From Candidatus Marinacidobacterales bacterium (GTDB lineage: Bacteria; Acidobacteriota; Vicinamibacteria; Marinacidobacterales; SMYC01), in contig CBDCYI010000005.1 of assembly GCA_965224085.1 (NCBI GenBank), forward strand, positions 800,001 through 864,000: a stretch of 64,000 nt of DNA, read 5' to 3'. The notes under the pieces were generated by a model. It had not been told where the DNA came from. It saw only the letters and a program-made list of their open reading frames with translations, and did not search any database. Position 1 is the stretch's first letter, and every line of letters begins with the position of its first letter. Below, one piece after another: positions 21,945 through 58,571 of this stretch. A program made the position numbers and the translations under genes.

Positions 21945-22080
21945 TGTAGGTAATTCCCCCAGCTTTCGACTCGGATTTCCCCACGACGAGGCCGCCGCGC
22001 TCAGTTCTAAACGGCCCAAGTCTTTCAAACGTGGTGGCTTACAACAATCACTGAGCGACCGTGTTGGCGCGTTCTTTGCA
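21945..22080 (+). promoter_or_regulatory. sigma54 promoter (22065-22080) with upstream TGTAGG box (21945)
   Basis: TGGCGC-gttct-TTGCA; TGTAGGTAATTCCCC starts 120 bp upstream; same layout at three other loci. Confidence 0.75.
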
Positions 22081-22216
22081 GAAAGACCAAAGACCTGACG
22101 ATGAGGGGATTCGACGTTCACGCTGCGACCACGCCACCACATGCCCAACGGACCGTAGGTCGGGGCGCTCGACAGCGTTGGGCAGGGTTTTTTCATCAAG
22201 AGCTGCCACACTAGGG

Positions 22217-25200
22217 ATGATCCTGGCTCTCGCTCATTCCGCTACGGCACAGAGCACCGGTACTTATTCAGGGAACGGAAATGACAACCGTGCCTTCACG
22301 GGATTGGGCTTCCAGCCCGTCGTGGTGATCATCAAAGGCGACTCGGGCGCCGAAGCCTACATCCGCACCTCGACCATGTCAGGCGCCAAGAGCCTTGGGT
22401 CGGGGTCTCCGATCGTCTCCAACCATATCCAATCGCTGGATGCGGATGGGTTCACCATAGGAGACGACAACAACGTCAACGAATGCAGCGTCGATTTTTA
22501 CTGGGTCGCCTTCCCGGCGTTGCCGTGGCCACAGATGCAGCGTGGGTCGTATGGAGGCAACGGCAGCAGCCAATCCATCACCGGGATGGCGTTTTCGCCG
22601 GAATACGTCATCGTGATGTCGGCCGCGGGCCACGAACCCGTCCATCGCTCGGCAAGCATGACGACAACCTACCAATTCAAAGGAGATGGGGGGAGTTCCG
22701 GTCGGGTCACGTCACTCGACGCGAACGGCTTTACCGTGGGGGGAATCCTGAGGTCAATGAAAGTGGCACAACCTACCATTACGTGGCCTGGAACAAAGTG
22801 CTCGGGAAAATGAACGAGGGCTCGTATCTGGGAAATGAGCTCGATAATCAGAACAAGACAGGGGTCGGCTTTCAACCCAAATATCTGATCATCAAGGACT
22901 CCGCCGGCGAACGGGGCGTCCATCGGACGGAATCCTTAACCGGGGATAGTACGCTTGACTTCGAAGGCAATGCCAACATTCCAAACGCCATACAGGCACT
23001 TCAAGCGGACGGCTTCCAGGTAGGCTCGGACGTCACCGTAAACAAAGACACTGCGACGGATTACTGGATCGCCTTCGCTAACGCGACGACGAAGGTCACC
23101 CTCGCTTCCTTTGAGCCCACCGGCTATGACGGTGAAGTCCTTCTGGAGTGGGAGACAGCGTCCGAGCTCAACAACCTGGGGTTTCAACTGTATCGCTCGA
23201 CGTCGCAAGACGGTCCCTATGAGCGGATCACCGCTCAAGCGATACCGGGGTTGGGCTCGTCCGTTGTGGGCGCGAAGTACAGCTACCGCGACACGGACGT
23301 TACGAACGGGACGACGTACTACTACCGATTAGAAGACATCGAAACGACGGGACAGACCGAGATGCACGGACCGGTCTCGGCGACGCCTCGGGCAGGTGGT
23401 TCGTCGAGTAGCCGGGATCGCCGTCGTAGGGCGCGTCCACCGTCAGACGAGACGCTGATCACCTATGGAGAGCCTTCCGCGAGCTCATGGAACGTGTTGC
23501 AGCGGGGTCGCGATCAGATACTCATCGAGCTACGGACGGGCGGTTTCTACGCAGCGCCGCAAGAAGATGGAACGGTACAGATTACGATCCCGGACTTTGT
23601 GGAGCTCCGCGAAGCGGGCGCGCCAGCGATTCCGGTCAAGCGAGCGAGGGTGGAGGCGATCGCGGGTCGCAAGGTGCGGCTGGTTTCCGTGAGGGCCCAT
23701 GACGTGGAGGCCTTCACGAGCTTGCGTCCCGCGCAAGCGGAGATGCCGGAGATCGTGGCGTCGCAAGACGGTACCGTGCGGGCCTCTCGTCGTCGAGCGC
23801 GGTCGGCGTTTCGAGGAGAGGAACTGAGCCCGTCGAGCGCGGCGCGGATCGTCGAAGTGGGATTCCAGGGCGACGTGAAAAAAGCTCTGGTGGAGCTGGC
23901 GCCCGTTCGTTGGGATGCGGCAAGGGGACAGCTTTTGCTCGCGCGTCGTCTCGTCGTCCGGCTGTCCTTCAGAGAGCGAGAGCCTTCGGAGACAACGACG
24001 CGGGGTAGACGTGGTCGCCGCTACCGAAAGCGGGATAGCCACGACGAGCGCAGCGTCGCCACGCGTCTCGCCACGACCGAGAGAGGCCTCTACGCTTTGC
24101 GTTACGAGGACGTGTTCCGTCTGCGCCGCGGCGTACGTGCGAGCGAGCTCCGTCTGAGTCGTCAAGGCGAATCGGTGGCGTACCATCTCGAGCCGAGCCC
24201 GACGCGCTTCAAGCCGGGATCGACACTCTACTTCATGAGCGAAGGCGCTGCGGTGAACCCTTACGGCAACGAGGCTGTCTACGAGCTCGAGGTGGGCCGG
24301 GCGGGAGCGATGATGCTCTCGAGCTCACAAGCGCCCTCCGGAGAAGACACGACGTTTTATATGAAACGGGTGGAGCAAGAGCAAAATCGCTATTACCAAG
24401 CTGCTCTCGTCGCAGCGCCGGATCGATGGCTATGGGACCTGTTGTTTGCACCCGTGACGAAGAGCTACCCGTTCGAGGTGAACGCTCTCGCGCCCACGAC
24501 GCAACCCTCGACACTCAGTGTATGGCTCCAAGGAGTGAGTGATTTTGACGCGGACCCGGACCACCACTTGCGCGCCTACGTGAATGGGACGTTTGTCGGC
24601 GAGGTGAGCTGGGACGGCAAAGCGTCGCGGCGCATCGATGTGGAGCTACTGCCGGGCGTTCTCTCCGAAGGGGAAAACACTCTGGAGCTCGAGAACGCGG
24701 GAGATACGGGCGCCTTGTACTCGATGGTCCTGCTCAACCGATTCGCTTTGAGCTATCCGCGCGTCGCGGTGGCCGAAGGCGGAACGCTCGAAGGTAGGTG
24801 GATGGAATCGGGAGTAGCGGAAGTCAGCGGGCTGAGCGGGGAAGCTCATGTGCTCGAGCTGAGCGGAGAGCACCCGCAGTGGCTGAGCGGAGCCCAGCTC
24901 CCCGAAGCGGGGACCGTGCGATTCCGAGCGGAAGCGGGTGGGAGCTACCTAGCGGTGAGCGCGGAAGCAGTGCGTCGTCCCGAACTGCGCCAGGTCTTCG
25001 CGAGCAGCCTTCAACACTTGAAGAACCGGCGCAACCGTGCGGACTACCTGCTCATTGGCCCTCGGAACTTCCTCGTGGCGGCGACGCCCTTGCTCGAGCA
25101 CCGGAAGCGCCAGGGTCTGAAGGTGAAGTCGATCGCCATCGAGGATGTGTACTCGGAGTTCGGCTATGGGGAGTCGGCGCCCGAAGCTCTTCGCGAGTTC

Positions 25201-26088
25201 TTGAGCTATGCGTACCACAACTGGCGTGAGCCTTCGCTGCGCTACGTGGTGCTTTTCGGGGACGCGACCTACGACTTCAAGGACTACCTAGAGACGGGAG
25301 TGCAGAATCAAGTGCCACCGCTCATCGTGAAGACCAGCTATATGTGGACGGCGTCGGATCCGGGCTATGCGGCGGTCAACGGTGAGGACCTCCTACCGGA
25401 CCTGCCGATCGGACGACTGGCGGCGAGCACGGTGGACGAAGCGCGGAGTATGGTGGAGAAAATCCTCACCTACGAGACGGGCGAAGCGACTCTCGCGGCG
25501 CCGGTGGTGTTGGTAGCGGACAACGCGGACGAGGCGGGAAACTTCGAAGCTGATGCCAAAGCACTTGCCGGGAGTGTTCTCGCTTCGAGGCATCCCGAGA
25601 AGATCTTCCTAAGTCAACTGGGGACCGCCGCGACGCGCGACGGGATCATCCAGAGCTTCGACGACGGCGCATCGATCGTGAGCTACATCGGCCACGGCGG
25701 CATCGTGGTTTGGGCGTCGGAGAATGTCTTCAACTACACGGACGTCGAGGCCTTGGCCCCTCAAGCGCAACAGCCGGTGCTTCTGACGATGAACTGCCTC
25801 AATGGCTTCTTCCACTTGCCACACATCAACGCGCTCAGCGAGGAGCTCGTCAAAGCGACGGACAAAGGAGCGATAGCGGCGTTCTCACCGAGCGGTCTGA
25901 GCTTGAACGATGCGGCGCATATTTATCATCAGGCGCTTCTGCGCGAGCTCGTCGATTTCAAAGGGCGTCACGAGCGTCTCGGAGATGCGGTGCTCGCAGC
26001 ACAGGCGGCCTACGCCGAGACGGGAGCCTTCCCTGAGCTTTTGAGCATATATCATCTATTCGGCGATCCCGCCTTGACCCTCCGGTAA
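22217..26088 (+). CDS. Large secreted protein: GxYxGNG repeats, Ig/FN3-like domain, C25 propeptide and gingipain-like C25 peptidase (frameshift near 22740)
   Basis: LEWETASELNNLGF; YVVLFGDA; catalytic SYIGHGG and MNCLNG; LFGDP; indel lies in a G run. Start position uncertain. Confidence 0.8.
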
Positions 26089-26090
26089 CC

Positions 26091-28490: not shown

Positions 28491-28493
28491 GCG

Positions 28494-34049: not shown

Positions 34050-35733
34050 GTTCCTGTCCAGAAACACCATAACTTGTGGTGTACGAGAGGCCTATCGAAG
34101 ATGTGGGTATTATACGTTTTCAGTCGGCACCTCGTAGGCTCGGAAGCGAATGAAAATCTTGGACGAAACGAGAGGCGAATCGTCAGCAATCCATGGCTAT
34201 AAACGCAGTAAGAGCAATCATTATTATCGTAATAGGTGCCTTGCCATTACCAACAGGTTGCAGGTGATGATGGAACTCCATACGTAGGATTTGAAAGAAG
34301 GCAATGAGCGCCATGTGCATCGGTCGAGACCAAAGACTCGTTTCAAGAACGAAATGACGCCTTCGATTCCGCAGCGAAATCGCCGTAGGCGTTGATAGAC
34401 CCAGGAACTCTTGACCATATCGGTCACCGCGAAGTGAGCCTTGGTAAAGGCAACATCTTCAACTCCCTTGCCTTTGATGGCTTCCAAGTTTGCCTTTGAA
34501 GAAAACGCGCCATCGTAGGCAACCTGGCGCGGGGCCCGTTCGTAGAGTTCGACTTGACGGTCGATCATGGTTTCCGCGAGAGTTGAATCGGACGGATTCC
34601 CATCCAAGATCACGCAATCCAAAATCATCGAGGACGAGCCACCAGTCAAACACACCTTGTGACCGTAGAGAGTCTCGCGCCGGTCTTTGCGAATAATGTC
34701 GGTGTGTTCTTCGAAGATCGAAACGACCTTTTCCTCCGCAGGCACACGCTCTTCATCAATCACTCTACGCCGAGTTTGGTTGATGACTTTTTCGGTGAGG
34801 ACGAGAAAGTGCTTAAAATCCGCGGCGATCTTCTCCGCACTCGCTCGCTTCACCGGCTCGGTCAAGCCGGACTCGTCCAACTGGTCTGCAACGCGTTGAG
34901 CGGAGCGATAGGTTTCTTCCGACACCTTCAGTAGATCTCGATAGACGCGACGCCTTTGTTCCTTATCCTTCGCGTTTAGAACTCCCAGTCGACGTCTCTT
35001 CGCTCGACGCGTTCGATTGCCGAAGACCACTACTGTACCCAGCAGTTCGCGAGTTCGGCACATGAGGCGAGTGAGAACTCGGACGCAGTCATAAAGAAGC
35101 TCGGAGTCCGTAGGAGAATGAATATTCGACTCCACTACCGTGCAGTCCACTCGTACTTTTCTTCCTTTTTCGATCGCGGTCTTCTCGGCAACACTCACCA
35201 ACTCTCGGTTGATTTTCTCCAGCGTTTCGAACTTCACGGCTTTGATGTTTGCTGCTAGGGTCGACTTCGACGGGCTCGGCTCTATGATGCCGAGCTGGCA
35301 AAACGTCCGATAGCTTCGAGAGTCTGCCAAGTGAAACGCCAGCTCCCGATAGGTGAACTGATTCAGCTGCTTGACCAACAACGCCCGGAGAACCTGCTCC
35401 GCGCTCATTCCCCCACGACCAACATCGCTCCCTGCCGATGGGGTGACCGACCTCAGGTCTTGCAGTACCAGCTCATTGAGCTTAGGATGGGCATCGAGCA
35501 GCGATGATATCGTTTCGAGCTCGCGTGCGTGCTCCAGCTCCAGCCAGGGCTCGCGAAGGCTTGGTTGTGGGTTGATCGTTTTTCGCATTTAGGGCTGGTC
35601 TCCTTTGGAGTTAAGTCGTTTAGAATCTGCGTTTTTGTCGACTCGATACTAAACGACACTCCCTCAGAAGGCTAGCCCTAAATTTGCGATTACCCCTTTT
35701 TTCTCAACCTCTTACACCTGTCAGGACGGGTAC
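34050..35733 (-). mobile_element. IS element B copy 1 (ISNCY-like), 1684 bp
   Basis: Ends GTACCCGTCCTGA and GTTCCTGTCCAGA; flanked by TAGCTA; near-identical to 46025-47708. Confidence 0.92.
34224..35588 (-). CDS. ISNCY-family DDE transposase
   Basis: RVDCTVVESNIHSPTD, YGHK, AYDGAF and FRCGIEGVISFLKR motifs. Confidence 0.9.
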   Translation of the reverse strand: MRKTINPQPSLREPWLELEHARELETISSLLDAHPKLNELVLQDLRSVTPSAGSDVGRGGMSAEQVLRALLVKQLNQFTYRELAFHLADSRSYRTFCQLGIIEPSPSKSTLAANIKAVKFETLEKINRELVSVAEKTAIEKGRKVRVDCTVVESNIHSPTDSELLYDCVRVLTRLMCRTRELLGTVVVFGNRTRRAKRRRLGVLNAKDKEQRRRVYRDLLKVSEETYRSAQRVADQLDESGLTEPVKRASAEKIAADFKHFLVLTEKVINQTRRRVIDEERVPAEEKVVSIFEEHTDIIRKDRRETLYGHKVCLTGGSSSMILDCVILDGNPSDSTLAETMIDRQVELYERAPRQVAYDGAFSSKANLEAIKGKGVEDVAFTKAHFAVTDMVKSSWVYQRLRRFRCGIEGVISFLKRVFGLDRCTWRSLPSFKSYVWSSIITCNLLVMARHLLR

Positions 35734-35746
35734 TAGCTAGTACCCG

Positions 35747-38700
35747 ATGCGGTCCACATATACGTCGTCTTTACGATCAAAGGCGGCACTTGGTTCGCGA
35801 TACCTGTCTTCAGGTAGTCCTTGAAGTCGTAGGTCGCGTCTCCCAAAAGCACCACGTAGCGCAGGGACGGCCGACGCCAGTTGTGGTACGCGTAGCGCAG
35901 GAACTCGCGAAGCGCTTCGGGCGATGTCTCTCCAAAGCCGAACTCCGCGTAAACGTCCTCGATCGCCACCGACTTCACTTTCAGTCCTTGTTGGCGGCGC
36001 TGCTTCAGAAGAGGCCTTGCGGCGCCGAGGAAAGCTCGCGGGCCGACCAACAGATATTCGGCGCGGTGGCTTCGGCTCTTCAAAGCACTCGAAGGCATCG
36101 CGCGCACTTCCGGTCGGCGGACGGACTCCGCGCTCACCGCGTAGTAGGTTTCTCCCGTTTCCGCTCGGAAGCGCACACGGCTCGCATCGTTCTGGACGCC
36201 GCTCAGCCAACGCGGGTGCACGCCGCTCAGCTCGAGCACGTGGGCATCGGGGCCCAAACCGCTCACTTCCGCGACACCCGACTCCTTCCACACGCCTTCG
36301 AGCTCACCGTTTTTGGCCACAGGCACGCGCGGGTAGCTCAGCGCGAAGCGGTCGAGCGGACCATCGAGTACGCAGCACCCGTGTCGCCCACGTTTTCGAC
36401 TTCCAGAGTGTTCGTCCCTTCTGTCAGAACACCAGGCAGCAACGCCACGTCGATGCGGCGCGACGCCTTGCCGTCCCAGCTCGACTCACCGAGCAAGCTT
36501 CCATTCACGTAGACGCGCACGTGGTGGTCCGGGTCCGCTTCGAAATCGCTCACGCCTTGGAGCCACACACTCAAACCCGCGCTCTCACTCGTCGACGCAA
36601 GCGCACTCACTTCGAACGGGTAGCTCTTCGTTACCGGGGCAAATAGCAGGTCCCATAGCCATAGATCGGGAGCGGCTTTCTCAGTGAGGGCGGCTTGGTA
36701 ATACCGGTTTTGCTCTTGCGCCACGCCCTCCATGTAAAACGTCGTCGGCTCTCCGGAGGGCGATGCCATGCTGCCCGCCATCATCGTCCCGCTTCGGCCT
36801 ACTTCGAGCTCATACACCGCTTCGTTGCCATACGGGTTCAACGAAGCGCCTTCGCTCATGAAATACAGCGTCGAGCCCGGTTGGAAGCGCGGTCGATCGG
36901 GCTCCAAGCGGAACGCCACAGCCTTACCTTGACGGCTCAAGCGCAGCGAGCGCGCGGAAACACTGCGGCTTCCGCTGAGCACGTTCTCGTAGCGCACCGC
37001 GTAGAGACCTCGCTCGGTTGTCGCGAAGCGTCTCACCACTCTTCGTTCGTCGTGGCTTCGTCGCCTTCGGTAGCGGCGGCCTCGTCGTCCGACGGTCGCT
37101 TCTTCCGTTGGATCCGGCGTACGGAACGAGACCCGCACCACGAGTCGACGTGCCAACAGGAGCTGGCCTCTCGTCCCGTCCCAGCGCAGCGGTGCGAGCT
37201 CCACCAGAGCTTTTTTTACCTCGCCTTGGAAGCCGACTTCCAAGAGCCGTGCCGCGCTCGACGGGCTCAGTCCTTCGCCGCGGAACGCCGTGCGCGCTCG
37301 GCGGTTCACCGCACGCACCGTGCCGTCGAACGACGCCACCAACTCCGGTATCGCTGCTTGCGACGGGCGCAAGCTCGTGAACGCTTCGACGTCGCGCGCC
37401 CAAACCGACACCATCTCGACTTTGCGGCCCGCGATCGCTTCGATCCATTGACGCTTGACCGGGAGCGCCGGGGCGCTCGCTTCTCCAAGCTCCACGAAGC
37501 CCGGGATGCTCAGCCGTACCGAGCCGTCTTCTTGGGGCAGCGCGTAGAAGCCGTTCGTCGTCAGCTCGATCTGGATTTGGTCGCGCCCGCGCGGCGTCAC
37601 ACGCCATGTGCTCGACGCCGGCTCGCCATACGTAATGAGTGCATCTTCGGACTCTGTTGACGGTGGCGGCCCGTTATTGGGCTCGCTAGGCTCGTCGCTC
37701 AACGACGTATCGCCCTCGCGCGGTACAGCGCTCACCGGTCCGTGTCTCTCGGTCCGCCCCGAGCTCGCGCCCACCACCGAGGAGCCGAGCCCCGGGATCG
37801 CGCTCGACGTGATCCGCTCGAACTGGCCCGCTTCGCTTTCGGAGCGATACAGGTGGAAGCCGAGGTTATCGAGCTCCGTCGCGGTCTCCCACTCGAGCTC
37901 CACCGCACCGTCGACCCCGTGCGCCGAGAACGACAGCAAATCGACTTCCGTCGTCTCGATGCCCTTGTTGTAGAACCCGCAGTTCGGGTTCGGGGTGGGG
38001 TCGGGCGACGGCGTCACCGTCGCGTCCGGCCAAATCTGGTTGTTGTACTGCGCCTTGATGTAGCACGCCGAGTGAGCGGCGTCGGCGAAGCGCACTTCGT
38101 CGAGGATGCCGTTGAACATCTCGCCGGGCGGGTTCGATGCTCTGAGATGGCGCCCCATCATCGCGAACTGTCCGGTCGTTTCCCATGTCCCGGTGGTGAG
38201 GTCCGCGATGGGGCCCCCGTCCAGCACGCCGTCGATGTAGATACTCTGTGTGTCCGCCCCGACGTCCCGCACGGCGACCACATAGTGCCAGGTGTTCAGA
38301 GTCACAGAGCCTGTCGAGGCAAGAGAGTTAGCCCCCGTGGATGGCCCGAAGCTAGACCTCACTCGGTTGGTACTGTCGATACGAAAATGATACAGCGTCC
38401 TTGGACTGATCTCGTCACCGTCGGCGCTGTCGTAATCGTCGTATCGGAGGATAACTTGATGATTCGCCGAGCCCCTCGTGTTGACCCAAGCGGAGAACGT
38501 CACGGACGTGCTCTCGGTCATATGAAGCGACGCATCGTCGCCCAAATTGAACCAATCGTTCGACCCGTCGAAATCCAAGCTGCCGTTCGCCTGGCCCGCT
38601 ACTTGATCGGTGGTGGTCATACCCCCGTTCATCGTGCCGTTGTTGCCGGTGCCGGTGCTGTCCGCGATCTGAGGTGCCGCGCCCGAGGGGTCTTCACTCA

Positions 38701-41554
38701 AATGCCACACGGCCTGGTAGCTCATCGGACTCCACACGTCGGCGGGTTTTTGGGTCTGGGTCGAGGAGGTGATGTCGGTGTTGCCGTAGACGATCTGGAT
38801 GACGGTGTTGGAGCCGGCCATGTTGGTGTTCACCGACGGGAGCCGCACCCATGCGACGAGGTGGCCCGTGGCCGCGTTCCAGCTCTCGACCTCGTGGTCG
38901 AGGATGCACGGGGCGAGGCCGGCGCCGCCGCACGTCGTCGCGTCCACCGCGGTGAAGATGATGTCGTCGCCTTGAGGATCGGTGACGTGATCCCGAAGGT
39001 TGGTGTCGACGGAGTTGAACAGCATCGGGAAGTTCGTGAGCGTCGTCCCGCAGCTCGGATCGTCGATCTTGGTGCGGTCGATGGTGATGTTCTTGAAGTA
39101 GCTGTAAGGGCCAATCGAGCGGAACTCGTCCGCCCCGATGTCAGGCGTCGTCGCGTGACGCGAGTGCTGGTCGAAGTCTTCGGTGACGGGAAGGTCGGCA
39201 TCTTCGTCGAGATCGGCGCCGACGGTACCGAAGAGCGCTTCGGTGGTGTCCACGAGGTGCAGGTTCTCGGTGCCGTTACCGATGTTGAGGAAGTACGACG
39301 CGTACGCCGTTTGGTTCGTCACGCTTCCCGCGCCAAACATAGCGGCCGTCCCATCCGACGAGACGTTGTTGCTGCTGTTGGCGAGGTCGAAGGTTCCGGT
39401 GAAATTGTCCGTAATTCCATCGGTCGCGCTCATATCGAGCACGAGGTTGTTCCTCGCGATGAGGGTGCCGTTGTTTTGCTTTATGCCGAAGGCTTGAGCA
39501 CCGCCGTTGCCGTCGATGTTGTCTAGGTTGAAGATCGTGTTGTTGTGGAGGAACACCGTACCTCCCGCGTCGTTCACTTGCACACCGATGACGTTGTTGC
39601 CGGTTGCTGAGTTCTCCGACATGTCGTAGACGACCGAGTTCGAGAGCTTGACGTTCCCGCCCTCGAGGGAGAAGCCCCGAACTGCGCCGACCCCCGCGGC
39701 TACGTCGTGGAGGTCGTGCACGATGATGCTGTCGAGCAGAACATCCGTCGCGACGGACTCAACTCGGACCCCATCGATGCCGGATGCATTCGTGAGACCC
39801 GAGCCGTCGATCTCAATACCTGTGACGCGCACGTGCTCGTCCGAAATGTTGATGATGTCCTCCTCGACGCCCGGGGACGCGAACGAGGGCGCGATGCGAC
39901 ATCCGGAGCCCGCCACTCCGTTGTGCCGCTGGGACGTCCCGACCTCGTTCGTGGCGCTCGGCGCGTAGAGGTGGATGTACGTGTCCGGGCCGGTGGTGTA
40001 GCCGTCGATGGTGACGCCCGCTGTCTCCACGATGGGGCCGTCGTCGTAGCACGTCCAGTTGAGCTGGAAGCCGTTCCCGGCGAGATCCGCGGTGCCCAGG
40101 TGGAGGGCGTCGGAGCTTTGCGCCTCGGCGTCGGAAACCAAGTTGAACGCGCGGTAGATGTCGACGCTTGCGAGGGGGCCGAAGTTGATGTTGGTGTCGC
40201 CCGGCGTGCCGCCGCCCGCCCCCGAGTCCTGGAGCCTGAACTGCGTGGACGAGATGCGCTCGGCGATGTAATACCGCCTGGCACCGACCTGGACCTCGTC
40301 GCCCACGCCGATCCGATCGGCGGCCGGGGTGTCGAGTGCCATCAGACCCGCGGTAGCTGAGCCCGTCGACGAGTACAACGGCCCCGGGGCGGTCCCGATC
40401 GAGTAGTACATCTTCCGCTGGAACGCGAGCACGGCCCAGCTTATGTCCGCGGAGGCGCCGGTGAAGGTTCGCTGGAGCTGCAGCTGGGTCGGACTGTTGA
40501 TGTTCTGGGTGAACCAGGAGACGCCGGGAATGTCGTTCGCGACGTAGGGCGACTTTCCCCCTCTTTGCCACGCTCCTCCCCCGGCGATCGACCAGGACGG
40601 GCTCACGGGCGGGGTGAGCGTCGCGTTCAGAGGACCAGCCTGGCCACCGGGGAAGTTCATGTCGCCGCTCCTGACCGTCGTCCCGTCGGTGAACTCGACC
40701 AGGTACCAGGTGAGGTCCATGGTTAACCCGCCCCCGGTGGCATCGCGGTCGAAGACGAGGGTCGTCGGGCTGGTGATCCGGCCTCGGACCAGGCCCCTCC
40801 CGATTTGCGGGGCGGTGACAGCTCCGATTTCGTAGGTGTAGAGGAGCCACGACTTCGAGGTGTCGACGGCAGCGATGGGCCCGGCGGTGGGTATCGTTCG
40901 GGTCGTGGCTGTCACGGACGAGGTGCCCGAGGCGAGGCTGAGGCTCCCGCTCTGGACGCTGGCGCCCGTGAACTGGATCACCTGCCACTGAACCTCGTTG
41001 TTCGGCCCACCGTTGCGCGCATCTAGCCGGAGGGTCGTGGGGTTCGTTAGCTCCGCCCGCAGCCATTCGTTGGCGTCGTAGCTACTGCCGCCACTCCGGT
41101 AGCTAATCAGGGGGAAGGAGCTCGCCAGGTCGACCGGCGTGCCGAGGTTGACGTCGATGGGGAGAGGGGGAATAAAAGGGTTGATCTGGCCGCGCTGCAC
41201 GTTCACGCCGGAGGAGAACTCGGCCACGTACCATTCGATCGTGACGCTGCCACTGGTTCCTGTTCGGCGGAAGTCGAGCGTCGCGCCGCCGCCGATGATC
41301 TGGCCCATCACCAGCCCGTTGGGTGGGGCTGCCTGGTTGTTGCGCATGTTGAAGACGAGAAAGGAGCGGTTGAGGGTCACCGGGTTGAATGCGGGCGCCG
41401 TGACCTGGACGAACGTGGAGCCGCCGGGGAGGACGACACTGCCGTTCTGGACCGACTGGATCGTCGCCGCCTGGACCGGCTGGACGAGAGCAACTGCGCC
41501 CACGAGCGACAGGCAGAGATAGCCGGCGACGCGCATCCAGTGCCTCGGAGTCAT
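35747..41554 (-). pseudogene. Second large secreted C25-module protein (beta-repeat region, beta-helix, DUF2341-like and LamG-like domains), 3'-truncated
   Basis: Signal peptide from 41554; in-frame deletion near 37764; 1-nt loss near 36358; ends at WTAS before the catalytic His/Cys at the IS junction. Confidence 0.78.
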
Positions 41555-41600: not shown

Positions 41601-41735
41601 TGCAAAGAATACGCCAAGACCGTCGCTCGGGGACTCATGTAAACCGTTATGTTTGAGTAATTTGTACCGGCAAAACGTACACGCGGCAGTGTCTGTGTGG
41701 GGAGTATCGGGGCGGACGATGGGGATTCGCCTACA
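41601..41735 (-). promoter_or_regulatory. sigma54 promoter with upstream TGTAGG box
   Basis: Minus strand TGGCGT-attct-TTGCA (41616-41601); TGTAGGCGAATCCCC starts 119 bp upstream. Confidence 0.75.
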
Positions 41736-48858: not shown

Positions 48859-51800
48859 TTACCTAAGCGTCATAGCGGGGTCGCCGAAGAGGTTGTAGAT
48901 GCTCAGAAGCTCGGGGAAAGCGCCCGTTTCGGCGTAGGCTTCTTGCGCGGCGAGCACCGCGTCGCCCAGACGCTCGTGGTTTCCATCGACCAGCTCACGT
49001 AGTAGCGCTTGGTGGAATCGGTGCGCGGGGTCGTTCACGCTCAGCCCGCTCGGCGAGAACGCGGCGATGGCGCCCTTGTCCGTCGCCTTCACCAGCTCTT
49101 CGCTCAGCGAGTCGAGCGTCGGGAGGTGGAAGAAGCCGTTCAAGCAGTTCATGGTCAGCAGAATCGGTTGCTGCGCCTGGCTCGAAAGCGAGGCGACATC
49201 GGTGTAGTTGAAGACGTTCTCCGATGCCCACACCACGATGCCTCCATGGCCGATGTAGCTCACGATCGAGGCCCCCCCGTCGAAGCTCTGTAGGATCGCT
49301 TCGCGCGTCGCTGCCGTTCCGAGCTCGCTCAACGCGATCGTCTCCGTGGGTCGCGAGGCGAGCACTCCCGTCGTTAACGTGCTCGCGTTCGCTTCAAAGT
49401 TACCCGCCGTGTCCGCATTGTCCGCGACCAGTACGACGCGACCCGATAGGGTCGCGTCGCCCCGCTCATAACCCAAAATCTTAGCGACCATCTCTTCCGC
49501 TTCGCCCACCGAGCTCGCCGCGAGCCGACCAAGCGCGATATCCGGCAGCAAATCCTCACCGTTGACCGCCGCGTAGGCCGGGTCCGACGCCGTCCACATG
49601 TACGTCGTCTTCACGATCAAAGGCGGCACTTGGTTCGCGATACCTGTCTCCAGGTAGTCCTTAAAGTCGTACGTCGCGTCTCCCAAGAGCACCACGTAGC
49701 GCAGCGACGGCCGGCGCCAGTTGTGATACGCGTAGCGCAGGAACTCGCGAAGCGCTTCGGGCGACGTCTCTCCAAAGCCGAACTCCGCGTAGACGTCCTC
49801 GAGCGCGACCGACTTCACTTTCAGTCCTTGTTGCCGGCGCTGCTTGAGAAGAGGCGTTGCCGCCCCTAGGAAAGCTCGCTGGCCGACCAAGAGATATTCA
49901 GCGCGGTTCCCTCGGCTCTTCAAACGCGTCGTGGGCATCGCCCGCACTTCGGGTCGGCGTACCGATGCCGCGCTCACCGCGTAGTAGGTTTCGCCGGACT
50001 CCGCTCGGAAGCGCACACGGCTCGCATCGTTTTGGACGCCGCTCAGCCAACGCGGGTGCGCACGGCTCAGCTCGAGCACGTGGGCTTCGGGGCCCAAACC
50101 GCTCACTTCCGCGGTGCCGGACTCCTTCCACACGCCTTCGAGCTCACCGTTGTCAGCAACAGGCACGCGCGGGTAGCTCAGCGCGAAGCGGTCGAGCAGG
50201 ACCATCGAGTACGCAGCACCCGTGTCGCCCACGTTCTCGACCTCGAGCGTGTTCTCTCCTTCAACGAGCACACCCGGCAGCAGCGCGACATCGAGACGCC
50301 GCGACGTTTTGCCGTCCCAGCTCGACTCACCCACCAAGCTTCCATTCACGTACACGCGCACGTGGTGGTCCGGGTCGGCCTCGAAGTCGGTTACGCCTTG
50401 AAGCCATACGGTCAAGCTCGAGCTGTCCGTCGTTGACGCGAGCGCGCTCACTTCGAACGGGTAGCTCTTCGTCACCGGTGCGAATAGAAGGTCCCATAGC
50501 CATAGATCGGGAGCGGCTTTCTCAGTGAGGGCGGCTTGGTAGTAGCGATTCTGCTCTTGCTCCACGCGCTTCATGTAAAACGTCGTTGGGCCGCCTGACG
50601 GCGCTGCCGATCGGCTCTGCATCCTCGCGCCCGTCCGGCCCATCTCGAGCTCGTAGACGGCCTCGTTGCCGTACGGATTCAACGAAGCGCCTTCGCTCAT
50701 AAAGTACAACGTCGAGCCCGGTTGGAAGCGCGGCCGGTTGGGCTCCAAGTGGAACGCCACCGCTTTTCCTTGACGGCTCAGTCTCAGCGAGCGGGCGGGC
50801 ACACTGCGGCTTCCGCTCATCACATCTTCGTAGCGCACCGCGTAGAGACCTGGCTCCACCGCTGCGAGCCGTTTCGCCACGCTTCTTTCGTCGTGGCTTC
50901 GTCGCCTTCGGTAGCGGCGGCCTCGTCGTCCGCGCGTGGCTTCTTCGGAAGGATCCGGCGTCCGGAACGACACGCGCACCACGAGTCGACGTGCCAACAG
51001 GAGCTGGCCTCGCGTCCCATCCCAGCGCAGCGGCGCCAGCTCCACCAGAGCTTTTTTCACTTCGCCTTGGAAACCCACTTCCAAAAGACGCGCCGCGCTC
51101 GAGGGGCTCAGTCCTTCGCCGCGGAACGCCGTGCGCGCTCGGCGATTCAACGCGCGTACCGTGCCGTCGCGCGACGCCACGAGCTCCGGCATCGCCGCTT
51201 GCGACGGGCGCAAGCTCGTGAACGCCTCCACATCGCGCGCCCTCACCGAGACCAGCTCGACTTTGCGGCCCGCGATCGCTTCCACCCACTGGCGCTTCAC
51301 TGGCAGCGCCGGAGCGCTCGCTTCGCCCAGCTCCGCGAAGCCCGGGATGCTCAGACGCACCGAAGGTCGTGCACGATGATGCTGTCGAACCGAACGTCCG
51401 TCGCGACCGTCTCGGCTCGGAACCCATCGATACCGCGCGCATTGGTGATGCCCGACCCATCGAGCTCGATCCCCGTGAAGCGTACGTGCTGGTCCGTAAT
51501 GTTGATGATGTCCACGTCGGCGCCGGGCGATGCGATCACGGGTGCGATGCGACATCCAATTCCCGCCACTCCCTCGTGCCGCTGGGGACTTCCGACCTCA
51601 CCGAGCGAGAACGGTGCATAGAGATGGATGTACGCGTCCGCGCCGGTGGTGTAGCCGTCGATGAGGACGCCCGCTGTTTCCTGGATGGGGCCGTCTTCGT
51701 AGCAGGGCCAGTTGAGCTGGTAGCCGTTGGTGGCGAGGTCCGCGGTGTTCAAGTGGAAGGCGTCGGAGCTCTCCGCCTCGGCCTCGGTGACCGAGTTGAA

Positions 51801-53213
51801 CGCACGGTAGATCTCGAGGTTCGAGCTAGCGAACGAGACGTTCGGGTCCGCCGGCGTGCCACCGCCCGCTGCCGAGTCCTGGATCCGAAACTGCGTCGAC
51901 GAGATGCGGCTCGAGATGTAATACCGCCTCGTCGAGGCGCCGACCCGAATTTCGTCGCCTACGCCGACCCGCTTCGCCGCGGGAGCGTCGAGCGTCAGCA
52001 AGCCCGCGGCCGCGGAGCCCGTCGACACGTGGAGCGCCGCGGTCTCCGTCCCGATCGAGTAGTACAACCTCGGCGTGAACGCGACCACGGCCCATCCGAA
52101 GTCCGCGGTGGTGCCCCCGGTCAATTGGCGTCTCAGCCTCACTTGGGTGGGGTTGATGACGTTCTGTTGGAACCAGGCGACCCCAGGAATGTCGTTCGAC
52201 TGGTAGGGCGACTTGCCCCCTATCTGCAGGTACCCGCCCGCGGCCATCGACCAGGCCGGGTCCACCTGGGGGGCGAACGTTGCGACCTTGTTCGTCTGGG
52301 TGTTGGTGAAGTTCATGTTGCCGTGCCGCACCGTCGTGCCGTCGGTGAACTCGACCAGGTACCACGTGAGGTTGATGGATACACTGCCCCCGGTGCGGTC
52401 CCGATCGAAGTTGAGGTTCGTCGGGCTCGTGATCCGGCCGCGGACCAGGCCCCTCCCGATCCTCGGGTTCGTTCCGCCACTACCCGTTTCGAGGCTGTAG
52501 AGGAGCCACGACTTCGTGGTGTCGACGGCGGGGGTGAGGGTCGCGTTCTGGGATGCGGAGCTCGCACCGAAGTTGACGTTCCCGCTCTGGACCCTGGCGC
52601 CGGTGTACTCGACCACCTGCCACGCGATCCGGGCCCCACCGCCGGTGTGATCCAGTCGGAGGTTCGTGGGGCTCGTCAGCTCCGCCCGAATGAAGTCGTC
52701 CCGGTCGAAGTCGCCGCCGGCTTCCCGGATCGTGACGATGGGGAAGGATTTCGACAGGTCGACCGCCGTTGTGAGGGTGACGTCGAAATTCGGCTGCGGA
52801 GCCGCATAGACCTCGCCGTGCTGGACGAACACGCCCGAGGAGAACTCGGCCACCTTCCAGTGGATCGTCATAGCGGTGCCGCCGCTCGCGCATTGGGCTC
52901 TTTCGAACCGGAGCGTCGTGCCACCGGGGAGGATCCGGCCCGTCGCCTTCGTTCTGCCTGCCCAGAGCCCGTTGTTGCGTTGGCTAAAGACGAGAAAGGA
53001 ACGGTCGCGGGTTACCGGGTTGAATTGAGGCGCGGTGACGTCGACGATGCAGGTCGTGTTGGCCATGGTGAAAGACCCTTTCTGCACCTTGTGGATCGTC
53101 GCCGCCTGAGCCGGCGGGGCGAGAGCAGCTGCGCCCACGAGCGCCAGGCAGAGGAGACCCGCTCCGCGAATGGCCTGCCCCGGAACCGTCCTCCGTTCAT
53201 CAGCGATCGTCAT
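48859..53213 (-). pseudogene. Third large secreted C25-module protein with an internal out-of-frame deletion near 51363
   Basis: N-terminus is paralogous to the 41554 gene; IIVHDL joins directly to SVRLSIPG; C25 with GHGG, MNCLNG and LFGDP is intact. Confidence 0.8.
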
Positions 53214-53233: not shown

Positions 53234-53368
53234 TGCAATGAACGCGCCAACACCGAGGCTCGTCGATTCTTGTAAATGATTACGTTTGAACGTGTTGAGC
53301 TCGGAGAAAATCCATGGCGGCAGCGTGGTGTGGGAATTTCTGGGCAAAACGATGGTGATTTGCCTACA
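53234..53368 (-). promoter_or_regulatory. sigma54 promoter with upstream TGTAGG box
   Basis: Minus strand TGGCGC-gttca-TTGCA (53249-53234); TGTAGGCAAATCACC starts 119 bp upstream. Confidence 0.75.
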
Positions 53369-53498
53369 CCCGTCCGCGACAGGATGCTCGGCGTGGGACG
53401 GTACTCGAGAAGCTAAGCCGGCCCTACAGAGTGTAATGTGTTAGGGGCGGACACGATCCGCCGCGCGCCGATACCCGTCTATCTTTCGTACACGTGCT

Positions 53499-53536
53499 TT
53501 GAATCTAGCCAAAATATAGCTATAATATAGCCAGAA
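53499..53536 (+). promoter_or_regulatory. Toxin-antitoxin promoter with three 11 bp operator-like repeats
   Basis: TTGAAT-N16-TATAAT; repeats tctagccaaaa, tatagctataa, tatagccagaa. Confidence 0.6.
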
Positions 53537-53829: not shown

Positions 53830-54083
53830 AAAAAATAGCGCTCTCTGAAGTCAAAGACGACCTCTCCAGATATTTGCGGCTCGCTGAGAAAGAAGACGTG
53901 ATCATCACTCGACACGGAAAGCCCGCGGGAGTTCTTATCGGTTTCAAGTCGGAAGACGAATGGTTCGACTATCGGTTGGAGAACGACCCACGCTTTCTTG
54001 CAAGAATCGAGACGGCCCGCGCGAGCCTTCGAGCAGGGCGAGGCGTGAAACTCGAAGATGTCGAATTGGGCGACGAGTCGTAA
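53826..54083 (+). CDS. Phd/YefM-family antitoxin
   Basis: SEVKDDLSRYL..VIITRHGKPAGVL; ATGA overlap with the toxin. Confidence 0.88.
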   Translation: MKKIALSEVKDDLSRYLRLAEKEDVIITRHGKPAGVLIGFKSEDEWFDYRLENDPRFLARIETARASLRAGRGVKLEDVELGDES

Positions 54084-54264
54084 CACTCTCGCCACGAGCC
54101 ACCCCAGCAGCGGATGAATCGGTCCGGACATGTCCTCGACGGTTGAGTCGTCCGGAAGCCCATTGAGCACTTGGGTGACGAATTTCTTGCCCGATGACAT
54201 GCTTCGAGCCTCTCCAGATTGTATCGTGTAGCGCCAGGCCGAGTCCCGGAAACGAGGTCACAAG

Positions 54265-55755
54265 TTAGCGTGTACCCACGATCGCCTCGCCCGGGAACAC
54301 TCCCTCTCGGATTTCGCCGTCGGTGAGCACGTGGACGCCGTTCACAAAAACGTGAGCGATGCCCGCGGACGGGAGGTCGCCTTTTTCGAACGTCGACCGA
54401 TCGAGGATCGTGTCGGGGTCGAAGAGCGTCAAGTCTGCGTCCGCGCCGACTTGCACGCGGCCTTTGGTTTTCATTTGTGTGGTCGTCCCCTGAAGGCGCT
54501 GGGCGGGAAGCAGCGTCATCTTCGAAAGTGCATCCATCAAGCTGAGCGTTTGGCGGTCGCGCGCATAGTGGCCGAGAACGCGTGAGAAAGTGCCGGCGCC
54601 TCGCGGGTGGGCGGGGCCGTAAAGAAACGGGATGCCGTCGCTTGCGACCATGACGTCCGTTTGCGCGACGATCCACGCGTTGGTCTCCTCGTTGCGGCCG
54701 TGGCTGATGAGCCATCCGCCTTCGCTGCGGTAGCGCGCGAAGCTCTCTCGGGTCAACCGCTCGCCCGTCGCCGGCCATTGCAAGCGCGCGAAGCGCTCAT
54801 TGGGCCAGGACTCCCACGCGTCGTAGGACGCGGACTCGATCCGCGTGGAGCCGGCGGTGTACGGATAGGCTTCCGTCGTCACGTCGATCCCGCGTGCCAC
54901 GGCGCCGCGGATGAGATCGAGCACGACAGGGGCCAGCTCGCCCGCGCTCGAGTTCAAGTGCACGAAATGAAGGGTTGCGCCGGTCGACGCCGCGTTCGCC
55001 AAACATTCCTGAAACGCGCCGAGCGTGCCGCCATTCCCTCGCCCGCGGGTGTGAACGTAGATAGGGACGTCTTGCTCTTTCGCGAGCTTGAAGAGATCGA
55101 AGATCTCGGATCTCGACGCGCCCGGGGTGTAGGTGATACCGAGCCCAAAGCCGAGGCCTCCGTCCTCGAGCCCTTGCTTCATGAGCTCGCGGAGCCTTCG
55201 GCGTTCGGACTCGGTCGTGTCCTTCGACTCGAAGTCTTCGTAGTCGAGAAGATCGGTGCGCTCCGGTGAAAGGGTCGCCCAGCTCTCGAGGTCGGCGCCG
55301 TGGAACAACTTGAGACGAGCTCCAAGGTGGCCCACGGTAGCGCCGTAGTGGATGACGGATTGGCCCGCTTGTTTTTTGAGCCAGCTGTCCATCGGAAAAA
55401 TACCGAACTCCATTTCGAGCGCGGTCGTCACGCCGTCCGCGAGCTGCAGTTTGCGAGAGACGGGGTCCTGGCCGTGCGCATGAAGATCGATGAATCCCGG
55501 CGCGACCACGAGACCGGCCGCGTCGATCGTCCGGGCGCCCGTAAGCGGCTCTTCACGGATCGCGACGATCTTGCCGTCGGCGATACCAACGCTTCGGACA
55601 GCGTCGAGACCGGTCTCGGGATCCATGACGCGGCCGCCCGCAAGCACGATCTCGAAGTCCTGAGCATCGATGGACAGGGCGAGCGCGAGTGTCGCCGCGC
55701 AGACGAGCAAGAACCGAAAGCATTTCACGGGTGGCCTCCCGACGTGAGAGTCCAT
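54265..55755 (-). CDS. Secreted amidohydrolase (D-aminoacylase/dihydroorotase-like)
   Basis: PGFIDLHAH, ASDG, HPRGAGTF and KGRVQVGADAD motifs. Confidence 0.85.
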   Translation of the reverse strand: MDSHVGRPPVKCFRFLLVCAATLALALSIDAQDFEIVLAGGRVMDPETGLDAVRSVGIADGKIVAIREEPLTGARTIDAAGLVVAPGFIDLHAHGQDPVSRKLQLADGVTTALEMEFGIFPMDSWLKKQAGQSVIHYGATVGHLGARLKLFHGADLESWATLSPERTDLLDYEDFESKDTTESERRRLRELMKQGLEDGGLGFGLGITYTPGASRSEIFDLFKLAKEQDVPIYVHTRGRGNGGTLGAFQECLANAASTGATLHFVHLNSSAGELAPVVLDLIRGAVARGIDVTTEAYPYTAGSTRIESASYDAWESWPNERFARLQWPATGERLTRESFARYRSEGGWLISHGRNEETNAWIVAQTDVMVASDGIPFLYGPAHPRGAGTFSRVLGHYARDRQTLSLMDALSKMTLLPAQRLQGTTTQMKTKGRVQVGADADLTLFDPDTILDRSTFEKGDLPSAGIAHVFVNGVHVLTDGEIREGVFPGEAIVGTR

Positions 55756-55791
55756 TCGAAATCATACTATCACCGCAGTTCCGTAGACTTT

Positions 55792-56900
55792 CTAGACGGA
55801 AGAGTGGACTCGACGATCGGTAGATTTCTCCGCCCGCTCTATAAAGAGTCGAGGCCACATGAAGCGCGGCAGTCCCATGGCGAATCTCGCGGCTCGGGTA
55901 ACACCATGCGCGACTTGAAAAGGCAGACGGTAGAGCTCGTTGAAAGGCCCTCCGACGCCGACCGTGCCTTCGATCGCGTTCGGCCAGTGCTGACGAAGTT
56001 CTTTCAGAACACCCGCGGGGTGACGTAGGTAGCTTCCTATCGTCCCGCGCTGTTTGAAACCGGCTCCCCACTGACGGACTACGGTGGGAACGAGCCAGGA
56101 AGGAAGCTCCCGGGCGCGCTCTTTCACCGGGGTCCCGAGAAGGCGCGCCCCGAGTAGCTGATGAGCCAGTCCAAGCGTGCAGGCCACATAGTCCGTGCGC
56201 CGCCGGTCCCCGCTCATGAAATACTCCCAGTCGAAGTGCGCGGGTCGAGACTCGAGCGCCGCCCCGACATCACAAAGCCAAAGGGGACGCGCGACACCGT
56301 GGCGCAACAGGTGCAAGCAAAGCAAGCGAAGATGGTCCTCGGGGCCAGCAGGCGCACCTCGACGCCGCCGAGATTCAGCTGCCGCGCGCGGCCGAACACT
56401 TCTTCAAGGCGGCGATCGTCCAACTCGAGAAATCCTCGATGCAGATCGACCGGCCCCGGTATGGCCGCGTTCAAGGCCATCCGCGCCGTCCTGTGCTGCT
56501 CCGGCCGCACGTAGAGGTCGATGTCACCGTAGGGGCGCAGACCCTGCTCCGGGTACAACTGAGCCGCCGCAAAGCCTTTGGCGAGGAGGGGTTCCACTCC
56601 CGCCTCGCGAAGCACGGCGAGTGCTTTTTGAATTTGGGATTCGTGGATCGCTGTCTGAAGGGTGTGGAGGCGGTAGCCTTGTTTGAGCTCGATCGCAGCC
56701 GGGCAGCTCTGAAGTTTGGTGTCACGCACGCGCCACCAGCCCAAGGCCGCGGCCCCTGAGCCAAGAAGCAATGGTGTGATTTCCTTGAGCTCAGCCGGTG
56801 AGAGATCTAGAGGAAGCTGTTTGCGGCGCCACGCGCCATCGAGCACGGCAGCCACGAGCTTGCCGCGTCGCGCCCACTCCGCGGTCTGAGAGCTGTCCAT
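55792..56900 (-). CDS. Nucleotidyltransferase family 5-like protein (apparent frameshift near 56340)
   Basis: LAKG, RPYGDIDL, VDLH, LCLHLLRHG and WLCDV motifs. Confidence 0.8.
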
Positions 56901-56937: not shown

Positions 56938-57453
56938 TCACAAGCAGCCACCAAGTCCGTCGCAGACGCCGGTGATGCAGTCAAACGGAGGACATGAGAG
57001 ACTCGGTGTGCCGGCGTCCTCACCGCCGCAACTGGTAACGCAGGTTGCTGAGGCTTCTGCTGGCGTCGGCGCCACAATCGAAGTGACCAAGGGTAGGAGG
57101 ACCGTGAGTCCCCCTACCAGGCCCAATCTCCGTACCAATTCCCGACGTCCAAAGCGTGCGACCTCCGGCGGTCCGCTTATCCGCTCCTGCAGCAAGCGGG
57201 CCTTGGCTAGCTTGTCGAGCGCCAACCACACCACCGTCTCATCCATCTTGCCAGGCGGTGCCTTCAACTCTTTCTGCAAAAGCGTGGACATTCTTTTGAC
57301 GCTCGTTCGGCCGTCGCAGTGCTTGAAGACGAAGGCAGCGGTCTGATTCAGGCAGTGGGCTCGGTGACGGTCCAAGTCGTAGACCAACGTCTCCTCGGGC
57401 AATTCTTTGATCACCAGCCCATCTTCGCGAACCCGTGGCTTCTTCGATTTCAT
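56938..57453 (-). CDS. PqqD-family RRE fused to a twin-Arg signal-like segment and a 6-Cys peptide
   Basis: ETLVYD..AHCLNQTAAFVFKHCDG; GRRELVRRLG, hydrophobic stretch and PAEA; 37 aa Cys-rich tail. Confidence 0.82.
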   Translation of the reverse strand: MKSKKPRVREDGLVIKELPEETLVYDLDRHRAHCLNQTAAFVFKHCDGRTSVKRMSTLLQKELKAPPGKMDETVVWLALDKLAKARLLQERISGPPEVARFGRRELVRRLGLVGGLTVLLPLVTSIVAPTPAEASATCVTSCGGEDAGTPSLSCPPFDCITGVCDGLGGCL

Positions 57454-57481
57454 CCGTTCGTCTCTTTCTCCGGTCTTTGCT

Positions 57482-58309
57482 TTAGTGACGGCTCACGCAA
57501 CTCGTCAATAGAGATTCGGCCATCTCGCTGGCCTCGCCCCTCACGCCCTTCAGGACCAACGTGTCCGAGACGATCTGCTGCAGCGTGGCGAGCGAGGCCT
57601 CGGGTCTTCGCCGAACGGGCACCGTGTTGGCCATCAGCTCGAGCATGGCCCTGCCAGGGCTCAGTCGGGTGGGGCGCCAGCGCGCCCCGGGCCGGTATTG
57701 GGGCAGCACGACGAGGTCCACGGGAAGGGGTTTCTTGCCTTGAAGGCTACCCAGGGCTTCGGCCGGTAGATTTCTCGCTCGGGTGCCGTTGTTTTCACGC
57801 ATCGAAAGCGGCTTGGGATACGGATGCACGCGCCCTCGATCATCGAACACCGCAAATTCATCGGAATAGTACGTCGCTCCAGCTCGCAACAGCTCCGCCA
57901 CCAAGGTCGTTTTGCCGCTGAAACTGCGCCCTGGGATAACAATGGCCCGTCCGCGCCAACCTACGACGCCCGCGTGCACAAAGACTCTGCGACGCGCCGC
58001 CGAAGCTACGTCGAGCCGTAAGTCGGATTCGAGAACTTCGAGGACCTTGTCGAGATCCATGGTGCGCGCCCGCCTTGCCACTCCCGAGTACAGCAAGTTG
58101 TACCGTCGAACGTGCGGTCGCACGCGGCCGCCAACCCTAAGCGAGTACATCGTGTCGACGACCGGGGTCCGGGAGGCCTTCCACCCAGGTGGAAGGTGCT
58201 CGGGAAGCCGCTCCAAAACCTCCGGCTTGCTGACTCGGATCCCGATGCGCACTTCGTACGAAACGAAGCATGTACCGGCCGCCCACCCGAGGCGGTCTAA
58301 CTTCGCCAT
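57482..58309 (-). CDS. HPr-kinase-related P-loop kinase
   Basis: FVHAGVV, GRSFSGKTT and YYSDE motifs. Confidence 0.82.
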   Translation of the reverse strand: MAKLDRLGWAAGTCFVSYEVRIGIRVSKPEVLERLPEHLPPGWKASRTPVVDTMYSLRVGGRVRPHVRRYNLLYSGVARRARTMDLDKVLEVLESDLRLDVASAARRRVFVHAGVVGWRGRAIVIPGRSFSGKTTLVAELLRAGATYYSDEFAVFDDRGRVHPYPKPLSMRENNGTRARNLPAEALGSLQGKKPLPVDLVVLPQYRPGARWRPTRLSPGRAMLELMANTVPVRRRPEASLATLQQIVSDTLVLKGVRGEASEMAESLLTSCVSRH

Positions 58310-58443
58310 TCACGTGGAGCGTTTCTTGAACCGGGGCATCAAGTTTGGCAGCGTGGGCATATGGGTTCTCTGTTTCCTCCGATGCGCGTATGAGCGTCAT
58401 CAACGCGGGTCCATCGAATGGAGTTCTCTGAACACGTTGGACA

Positions 58444-58571
58444 TGCAAGCTCCGCGCCAATCTTTGGAAGCTGGCGAGCTCAGCCCTAAACAACTCACCA
58501 TCAACAGCTTCGCGGCGTGATCCCGCACGACAAAGGGAAGGAGGTACTAGTGAAGCGGGGATATCCCTACA
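58444..58571 (-). promoter_or_regulatory. sigma54 promoter with upstream TGTAGG box driving the kinase-RRE-NTase operon
   Basis: Minus strand TGGCGC-ggagc-TTGCA (58459-58444); TGTAGGGATATCCCC starts 112 bp upstream. Confidence 0.7.

Follow-up and report, generated by a model that had tools for sequence, protein, structure and literature searches.

Do three genes for C25-family proteins and an operon encoding an RRE-domain peptide, dispersed along one stretch of DNA from a Candidatus Marinacidobacterales bacterium, answer to a single activator? The stretch, hereafter the window, is 64,000 nucleotides long (positions 800,001 to 864,000 of contig CBDCYI010000005.1, here C5) and belongs to a genome of 6.87 Mb that is 95% complete (GCA_965224085.1, here G000). 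The original prediction held that all four loci carry a sigma54 promoter preceded by a TGTAGG box, and that one activator induces them together. The present analysis indicates that a shared sigma54 regulon is very probably real. In G000 the combination of box and sigma54 site marks about 20–25 promoters, and two families of the order have conserved it. The explanation favored overall, with a probability of about 0.65, combines this sigma54 regulon, an 18-bp palindromic enhancer site, a GlrR-like activator and a sessility programme.

Pattern searching of the window finds four exact TGGCRY-N5-TTGCW sites where they had been predicted: site A at 22065..22080 on the forward strand, and sites B, C and D at 41601..41616, 53234..53249 and 58444..58459 on the reverse strand, read from 41616, 53249 and 58459, respectively. 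All four show the −24 GG/−12 GC consensus, lie in intergenic DNA and face a gene; site D serves the RRE operon. The TGTAGG boxes begin at 21945, 41735, 53368 and 58571, and the re-measured distances place them 120, 119, 119 and 112 bp upstream of the sigma54 sites. In 300 dinucleotide shuffles of the window, a post hoc test because the pattern came from the finding itself, the four exact sigma54 sites compare with a mean of 0.13 and a maximum of 2, and the box–promoter pair, observed four times, never appears. In a mismatch-tolerant search of the window, neither the box alone nor the sigma54 motif alone exceeds chance.

The TGTAGG box is present as claimed, but it is only the left half of the true element, an 18-bp palindrome of the form TGTRGG-N6-CCYACR (consensus TGTAGGGAATTCCCTACA, from a matrix iterated from three non-paralogous seeds). 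The complete boxes lie at 21945..21962 on the forward strand (box A, TGTAGG TAATTC CCCCAG, 12.7 bits) and, on the reverse strand, at 41718..41735 (box B), 53351..53368 (box C) and 58554..58571 (box D, TGTAGG GATATC CCCGCT). Promoters A, B and C can be aligned over their full length with one another and with the promoter of a fourth C25 paralogue (C5:124226), at 62–71% identity and with positive scores; neither the RRE promoter nor that of an FHA gene (C5:23464) gives an alignment with A, B and C. The C25 promoters are thus duplicated copies, and the window holds two independent cases rather than four. As a consequence of this paralogy, the GCCGC and TCAAAC..TTACA stretches, which are indeed common to the three C25 promoters, represent inherited sequence and not independent evidence. 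The third shared word, TCCC(C)AC, comes from a weaker second copy of the box, of which it forms the right half; this copy scores about 6 bits in A (21968..21985, forward strand, 5.8 bits) and C (53329..53346, reverse strand, 6.7 bits) and is negative in B. Read as an IHF site, TCAAAC..TTACA does no better than chance in the window: the best match in the window promoters has two mismatches, equalled by 32% of random windows. In the C25 promoters of relatives, IHF-like sites with 0–1 mismatch occur in 5 of 22 when the 90 bp nearest the promoter are searched and in 1 of 22 when the search lies further upstream.

A genome-wide scan of G000, as had been proposed, extends the association beyond the window. 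With a matrix trained on G000 itself, boxes of at least 13 bits occur at 20 of 244 intergenic sigma54 sites compared with 26 of 3336 gene-upstream windows. With a matrix from 23 sites of relatives, 23 of the 247 intergenic sigma54 sites have a box of 10 bits upstream and 4 have one downstream, and at 12 bits the figures are 18 and 0; column-shuffled control matrices give a mean of 2.8 and a maximum of 11. Boxes D, A, B and C rank 15, 17, 18 and 25 of the 247 by the relative-trained matrix. The spacer is strictly six (N6 at 15 of 247 sites vs 0–3 for other spacers), and the distance from box to promoter ranges from 57 to about 290 bp. A strict combined pattern of box and promoter, which is too tight, returned three matches over 41 genomes. 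The frequencies in the sigma54 matrix are approximations. G000 does not lack rpoN, for which there is one match, and it has about 21 strong matches to Sigma54_activat, corresponding to bacterial enhancer-binding proteins (bEBPs); as had been noted, no activator gene lies within the window.

Forty related genomes were compared, from families f1 (18), f2 (8) and f3 (14). The exact box pattern is present in 18/18, 8/8 and 3/14 of them, respectively, and the summed forward counts are 60, 32 and 3, compared with 30, 8 and 23 for reversed-pattern controls. Of 68 exact boxes retrieved from relatives, a subset of all matches, 23 have a sigma54 site within 30–220 bp, compared with 12 of 936 control positions. 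Among 40 C25 5′ regions of relatives, picked for long open frames among C25 matches, 22 carry a sense sigma54 site. At these 22 promoters the N6 box is present in 19 with up to two mismatches and in 11 with up to one, the latter compared with 0–1 of 22 for other spacers. As only 1 of 231 pairs of these promoters is alignable, the recurrence of the box indicates that the C25 link is family-wide. In f3, most bEBPs and all C25 genes are lost, and rpoN is kept in all three genomes tested.

The targets suggest what the regulon does, although the simple gene caller missed the RRE gene and target names beyond those scanned with Pfam are provisional. In G000 they include four of the six C25 genes, two FHA proteins, several DUF4388 proteins, PilZ, a Ser/Thr kinase, a receiver-GGDEF protein, the HprK operon with its RRE gene, a PilX-headed operon, a 113-residue orphan, and a GGDEF-GAF bEBP heading a GGDEF/EAL/PilZ cluster. 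DUF4388, PilZ, EAL, LamG/DUF2341, kinase and orphan targets recur in relatives, where sugar-transfer enzymes are added. The regulon reads as a surface-contact or sessility programme of secreted multidomain C25 proteins, a PilX pilin operon, cyclic di-GMP (c-di-GMP) enzymes and PilZ effectors; it also takes in signalling through DUF4388, FHA and Ser/Thr kinase proteins, and certain lineages add the HprK–RRE-peptide operon. The claim that C25 genes and the RRE operon share a sigma54 activator site is supported, with the C25 link extending across relatives. A special C25–peptide pairing falls away, because the regulon comprises about 20–25 promoters, mostly of signalling genes. The idea of one activator co-inducing a programme agrees with the shared site, but the programme is much larger than proposed, and of nine HprK/RRE operons in relatives just two carry the box (those of G002 and G006, where box D has been retained); in G029 the box–sigma54 pair faces a divergent C25 gene, not the HprK operon.

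Two of these targets have features of their own. The 113-residue orphan (C5:82083-82424) has 55 homologues and is among the best conserved box targets, with a spacing of 134–145 bp in both families; its structural model (pLDDT 68) gives a best VIA Z of 8.6 to RsgI (root-mean-square deviation 2.9, 97 aligned), so that an RsgI-like fold is tentatively suggested. The GGDEF-GAF-AAA+ bEBP (C5:144176-147172, 998 residues) contains two helix-turn-helix (HTH)-like stretches by eye and heads a GGDEF/EAL/DUF4388-PilZ cluster.

Which protein reads the palindrome? The likely activator, judging from sequence comparisons, is a GlrR-like bEBP encoded outside the window (C5:1142389-1143768), which was noticed through two boxes in relatives about 2 kb from its orthologue. 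It has a receiver-AAA+-HTH architecture. Its HTH matches GlrR best (E 5.9e-12; next family 2.2e-5), and among six bEBP C-termini scanned it alone has GlrR as best match; the whole protein scores 439.8 bits against NF011695 (GlrR/QseF), below the cut-off of 763. Identity is 85–98% in the 13 relatives compared, which span two families, and the C-terminal 79 residues are found in 15/18 f1, 8/8 f2 and 0/14 f3 genomes, a profile resembling that of the exact box. In a phylum sample of 200 genomes this C-terminus has no close orthologue, with seven weak matches at 41–48%.

The candidate gene is itself associated with the box. In relatives it is the last gene of a box-plus-sigma54 operon: in 13 of 22 relatives there is a strong sigma54 site upstream of the gene, with a box of at least 11 bits about 250–290 bp ahead of it, and often with an S24/S26-like gene and an NTP_transf_5 gene between this site and the candidate. 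A further box, TGTATAATTTTCCCYACR, lies over the candidate's 5′ end at 18 of 24 loci; of the remaining six, one is a truncated copy in G012 and five are without this end of the gene. The box overlaps a TATAAT and varies only within the box consensus, while just 4 of the gene's 54 invariant residues keep an invariant codon. Among 19 called bEBP genes of G000, an upstream box of at least 10 bits occurs only at the candidate (10.7 bits) and the GGDEF-GAF bEBP (15.2 bits). S24/S26-like, NTP_transf_5 and 2-oxoacid:ferredoxin oxidoreductase-like genes neighbor the candidate, and no adjacent kinase is present at the locus. In G000, the candidate's sigma54 promoter has given way to transposases, as has the beginning of the S24/S26 gene, and the NTP_transf_5 gene of the operon is gone. 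An Rfam scan of four sources found only a tRNA, and no small RNA family at the candidate locus (L178). Upstream of the activator operon in relatives (L165-L177, L244), two divergent sigma54 promoters have a box in common; the genes they drive encode a FecR-domain protein and a large exported protein.

A mechanism consistent with this arrangement can be proposed. A single NtrC-type bEBP would bind the palindrome as a dimer and, once an unlinked kinase had phosphorylated its receiver, would oligomerise and loop to sigma54-polymerase to open the promoter. The GlrR-like protein might also activate its own sigma54 operon (S24/S26-like peptidase, NTP_transf_5 and activator), giving positive feedback, and might repress the basal TATAAT promoter that the invariant box overlaps.

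Several observations weigh against this reading. The relative-trained matrix is only a partly independent test, because the pattern used to collect the boxes of relatives came from G000, and the 40 relatives are kin and not independent samples. In G000, 44 of 65 boxes of at least 13 bits are without a nearby sigma54 site, and at two of its six C25 genes the sigma54 site is present without any box within 220 bp; among the C25 regions of relatives, 18 of 40 have no sigma54 site of at least 12 bits. As f3 lost most bEBPs together with all C25 genes, the phyletic profile does not single out one bEBP. Boxes also persist where the candidate is incomplete: G012 retains residues 1–159 only, and G004, G010, G021 and G023 retain C-terminal parts only. 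G016 (99% complete) is without the candidate, yet has box and sigma54 site at two of three C25 regions examined, reflecting either recent loss or another activator; its flank is 98.8% identical to that of G013, which would fit recent loss without proving it. In addition, the auto-box TGTATAATTTTCCCYACR scores only 10.7 bits, conservation of its left half might instead reflect a −10 element or N-terminal codons, and the candidate's sigma54-contact loop reads GTYTDA instead of GAFTGA.

The persistence of boxes in G016 and G012, which are without an intact GlrR-like gene, would be explained if a different bEBP, either the GGDEF-GAF-AAA+ protein at C5:144176 or another of NtrC type, read the box and the GlrR-like gene were a mere target. 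The GGDEF-GAF bEBP's own sigma54 promoter carries two boxes (15.2 and 11.4 bits), and profiling across relatives covered only part of the 21 bEBPs. However, the C-terminus of this protein occurs in 8 of 40 relatives and is absent from the box-bearing G002, G006, G010, G025 and G033, so that it is better read as a target, and as activator it was rejected on profile and box form; the GlrR-type HTH, moreover, is confined to the GlrR-like protein among the six C-termini. A different reader is therefore unlikely, if worth keeping in mind. Rather less probable is a non-bEBP factor of LuxR/NarL type, with a GacA-like spacing of its site, merely modulating promoters that different bEBPs open. The widely varying distance between box and promoter, the many boxes without a sigma54 site and four GerE-domain matches in G000 would suit such a factor, but not the strong, upstream-only coupling to sigma54 sites or the invariant box at a bEBP gene. 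That the sharing is an artefact, with C25 promoters alike by duplication and the RRE match arising by chance, agrees with the paralogy of the C25 promoters and with the seven of nine relative HprK operons that are without the pair; it is largely refuted, and very improbable, since G002 and G006 both retain box D and unalignable C25 promoters of relatives carry the box.

The layout had been likened to that of PEP-CTERM genes under PrsR, and the analogy holds for the layout, but PrsR was rejected as the activator. G000 does encode a PrsR above cut-off (621 bits vs 502.6), PrsK and EpsB2, in a complete locus at C5:40800-46700, with 10 dispersed PEP-CTERM matches; the exosortase family PF09721 has no match in this 95% complete genome. 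The C25 promoters contain TTACA, and PEP-CTERM motif 1, according to the accessible part of its description, is 17 bp long, ends in TTTACA and lies 32–92 nt before the promoter (PMC1569441). Of 41 genomes, however, only 9 have a PrsR that exceeds the cut-off, and no genome of f2, a family with a strong box, is among them. Four PEP-CTERM promoters were examined in G000: three bear a separate 17-mer, YGTCRR-N5-YTWACR, whose length fits the published motif, and none of the four exceeds 5.7 bits by the 18-bp matrix. The TTTACA of promoter B ends 21 nt before TGG, below the published minimum of 32, and the C25 proteins have no PEP-CTERM tail and are not among the 10 matches. It is thus most improbable that the box is the PEP-CTERM box of PrsK/PrsR. 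The two regulons are alike in that dispersed genes for exported proteins share an enhancer and a sigma54 promoter (PMC1569441, in the part available); the PEP-CTERM regulon differs in its 17-bp motif, its targets and its activator, and exists separately in G000.

The GlrR-like activator finds its closest counterparts in the GlrR/NtrC kind, to which the regulon belongs. GlrR (QseF) acts with sigma54 at glmY and glmZ of Enterobacteriaceae, and the likeness comprises the receiver-AAA+-HTH architecture, the GlrR-type HTH, sigma54 promoters, and the 18-bp TGT..ACA frame that the box has in common with the GlrR site TGTC-N10-GACA (PMC3045617, as far as its accessible text goes). JGI labels homologues of the candidate GlrR, and the names of homologues point to Vicinamibacteria (Acidobacteriota). 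The differences lie in the site (TGTRGG-N6-CCYACR, usually one strong box per promoter, compared with three for GlrR in that text), in the absence of GlrK/QseG or glmY beside the candidate, and in about 20–25 protein-gene targets compared with the one or two small RNAs described there. The TyrR and GcsR boxes (TGTAAA-N6-TTTACA and TGTAACG-N4-CGTTCCG) are likewise 18-bp TGTA-type palindromes read by an HTH of the enhancer-binding family, but have other half-sites and amino-acid metabolism targets (PMC4894688, available portion).

In the FleQ and VpsR biofilm regulons, a single bEBP-family regulator coordinates surface and matrix genes with links to c-di-GMP. Their sites and targets are unrelated to those described here, and the present analysis gives no sign that the candidate binds c-di-GMP. 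A literature search of sources other than supplements and subscription journals, which leaves absence from print unproven, found nothing on the motif, that is, the enhancer site, or on the regulon; the accessible main text of PMC12316311 has no mention of Acidobacteria, C25 or GlrR, and TGTAGG is absent from the portion of PMC4641369 available.

A bEBP acting on sigma54 is a textbook class of mechanism, and the surprise is therefore moderate. For a lineage without a cultured model, the regulon supplies a DNA site that is defined, a candidate for its activator and a list of targets. It also groups families of unknown function (DUF4388, NTP_transf_5, RRE–Cys-peptide fusions, non-Bacteroidota C25 proteins and the 113-residue orphan) in one programme, which offers a testable clue to their role. 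A wider interpretation, speculative and rather doubtful at present, is that a near-invariant GlrR-like master switch governs surface attachment throughout an uncultured order of Vicinamibacteria. It would control up to 19 secreted C25 protease/adhesin proteins per genome, pilins, c-di-GMP and DUF4388/FHA signalling, and RRE- and NTP_transf_5-type peptide-modifying enzymes that perhaps act on exported surface proteins instead of making antibiotics. The module would be undergoing independent dismantling in several lineages and be gone from the small-genome family.

In G000 the programme is decaying. C25 gene A (22217..26088, forward strand), with a signal-peptide-like start, Propeptide_C25 and Peptidase_C25, is split into two frames near 22750–22800. 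Gene B (35733..41554, reverse strand), with DUF2341, LamG and Propeptide_C25, is frameshifted near 36340, and an insertion sequence (IS) cuts its C25 domain after about 97 residues. Gene C (48859..53213, reverse strand) has an internal deletion and frame change near 51363 relative to the paralogue at C5:124185. Because these genes are frameshifted, deleted or IS-truncated, co-induction here would yield few intact products. The break near 51363 and one near 56343, in the nucleotidyltransferase gene of the RRE operon, are spanned without gaps in the dominant strain by short-read contigs, with runs from more than one study; these two breaks, to which the test was confined and which exclude those of genes A and B, are real. 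In two runs a minor variant has a different sequence where the nucleotidyltransferase is broken. At 49000-55792, low-depth contigs in all four runs link the nucleotidyltransferase end to a C25 3′ end across 521 other letters, and represent a related strain with a different arrangement.

PF01364 (peptidase C25, gingipain/PorU-like) scores are 249 bits for gene A and 257 bits for gene C, and GHG and MNC motifs, presumably the catalytic His and Cys motifs of C25, are found in the C25 proteins, which end at the catalytic domain. Scores against the PorU sortase model NF033707 are 208 and 203, below its cut-off of 420. The surface location proposed for these proteins is conjectural: signal-peptide-like starts are seen by eye, with no PEP-CTERM or other anchor.

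The RRE operon, on the reverse strand, begins with an HprK-related kinase gene (57482..58309; TIGR04352 69 bits, cut-off 200), followed by a gene (56938..57453) whose product joins a PqqD-like RRE domain to a hydrophobic leader of twin-arginine-like type and a Cys-rich tail, and ends with an NTP_transf_5 nucleotidyltransferase gene (55792..56900) that is frameshifted near 56343 in the dominant strain. Eight homologues of the RRE peptide share the RRE, an RR-containing hydrophobic leader ending in AxA and a variable tail with about 6–8 Cys; the start of the G002 copy is broken. The peptide had been called modified, a term that goes beyond the RRE fusion and gene order seen; from its sequence, export as a disulfide-rich peptide would be as plausible as modification of the type found in RiPPs, peptides made by ribosomes and modified after translation. 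HPr-rel-A (TIGR04352/04353) and those lasso clusters that bear a kinase and a nucleotidyltransferase, such as bsf, likewise have an HprK-like kinase in the same operon as an RRE and a nucleotidyltransferase (PMC10368454, in its accessible part). They differ in that TIGR scores here fall below cut-offs, the present operon is without lasso cyclase or B2 protease, and its RRE is fused to a Tat-like leader and Cys-rich tail.

A dense IS cluster occupies 32014-35588 and 43146-48532, in which 34224-35588 and 46170-47534, with identical Pfam scores, are apparent copies of one transposase, one of them truncating gene B. A RelE/StbE and Phd toxin–antitoxin pair (53536-54083) is inserted directly upstream of promoter C, where a second TGTAGG lies at 179 bp. 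In the relative G025, at least six C25 genes lie within about 75 kb (C1:593000-668000), with open frames of up to 6188 residues. A Ras/Arf-like small GTPase gene is located at 10339-11250 of the window, and an MglB/MglA-like pair, recognized by eye (C5:117377-118483), adjoins the fourth C25 paralogue.

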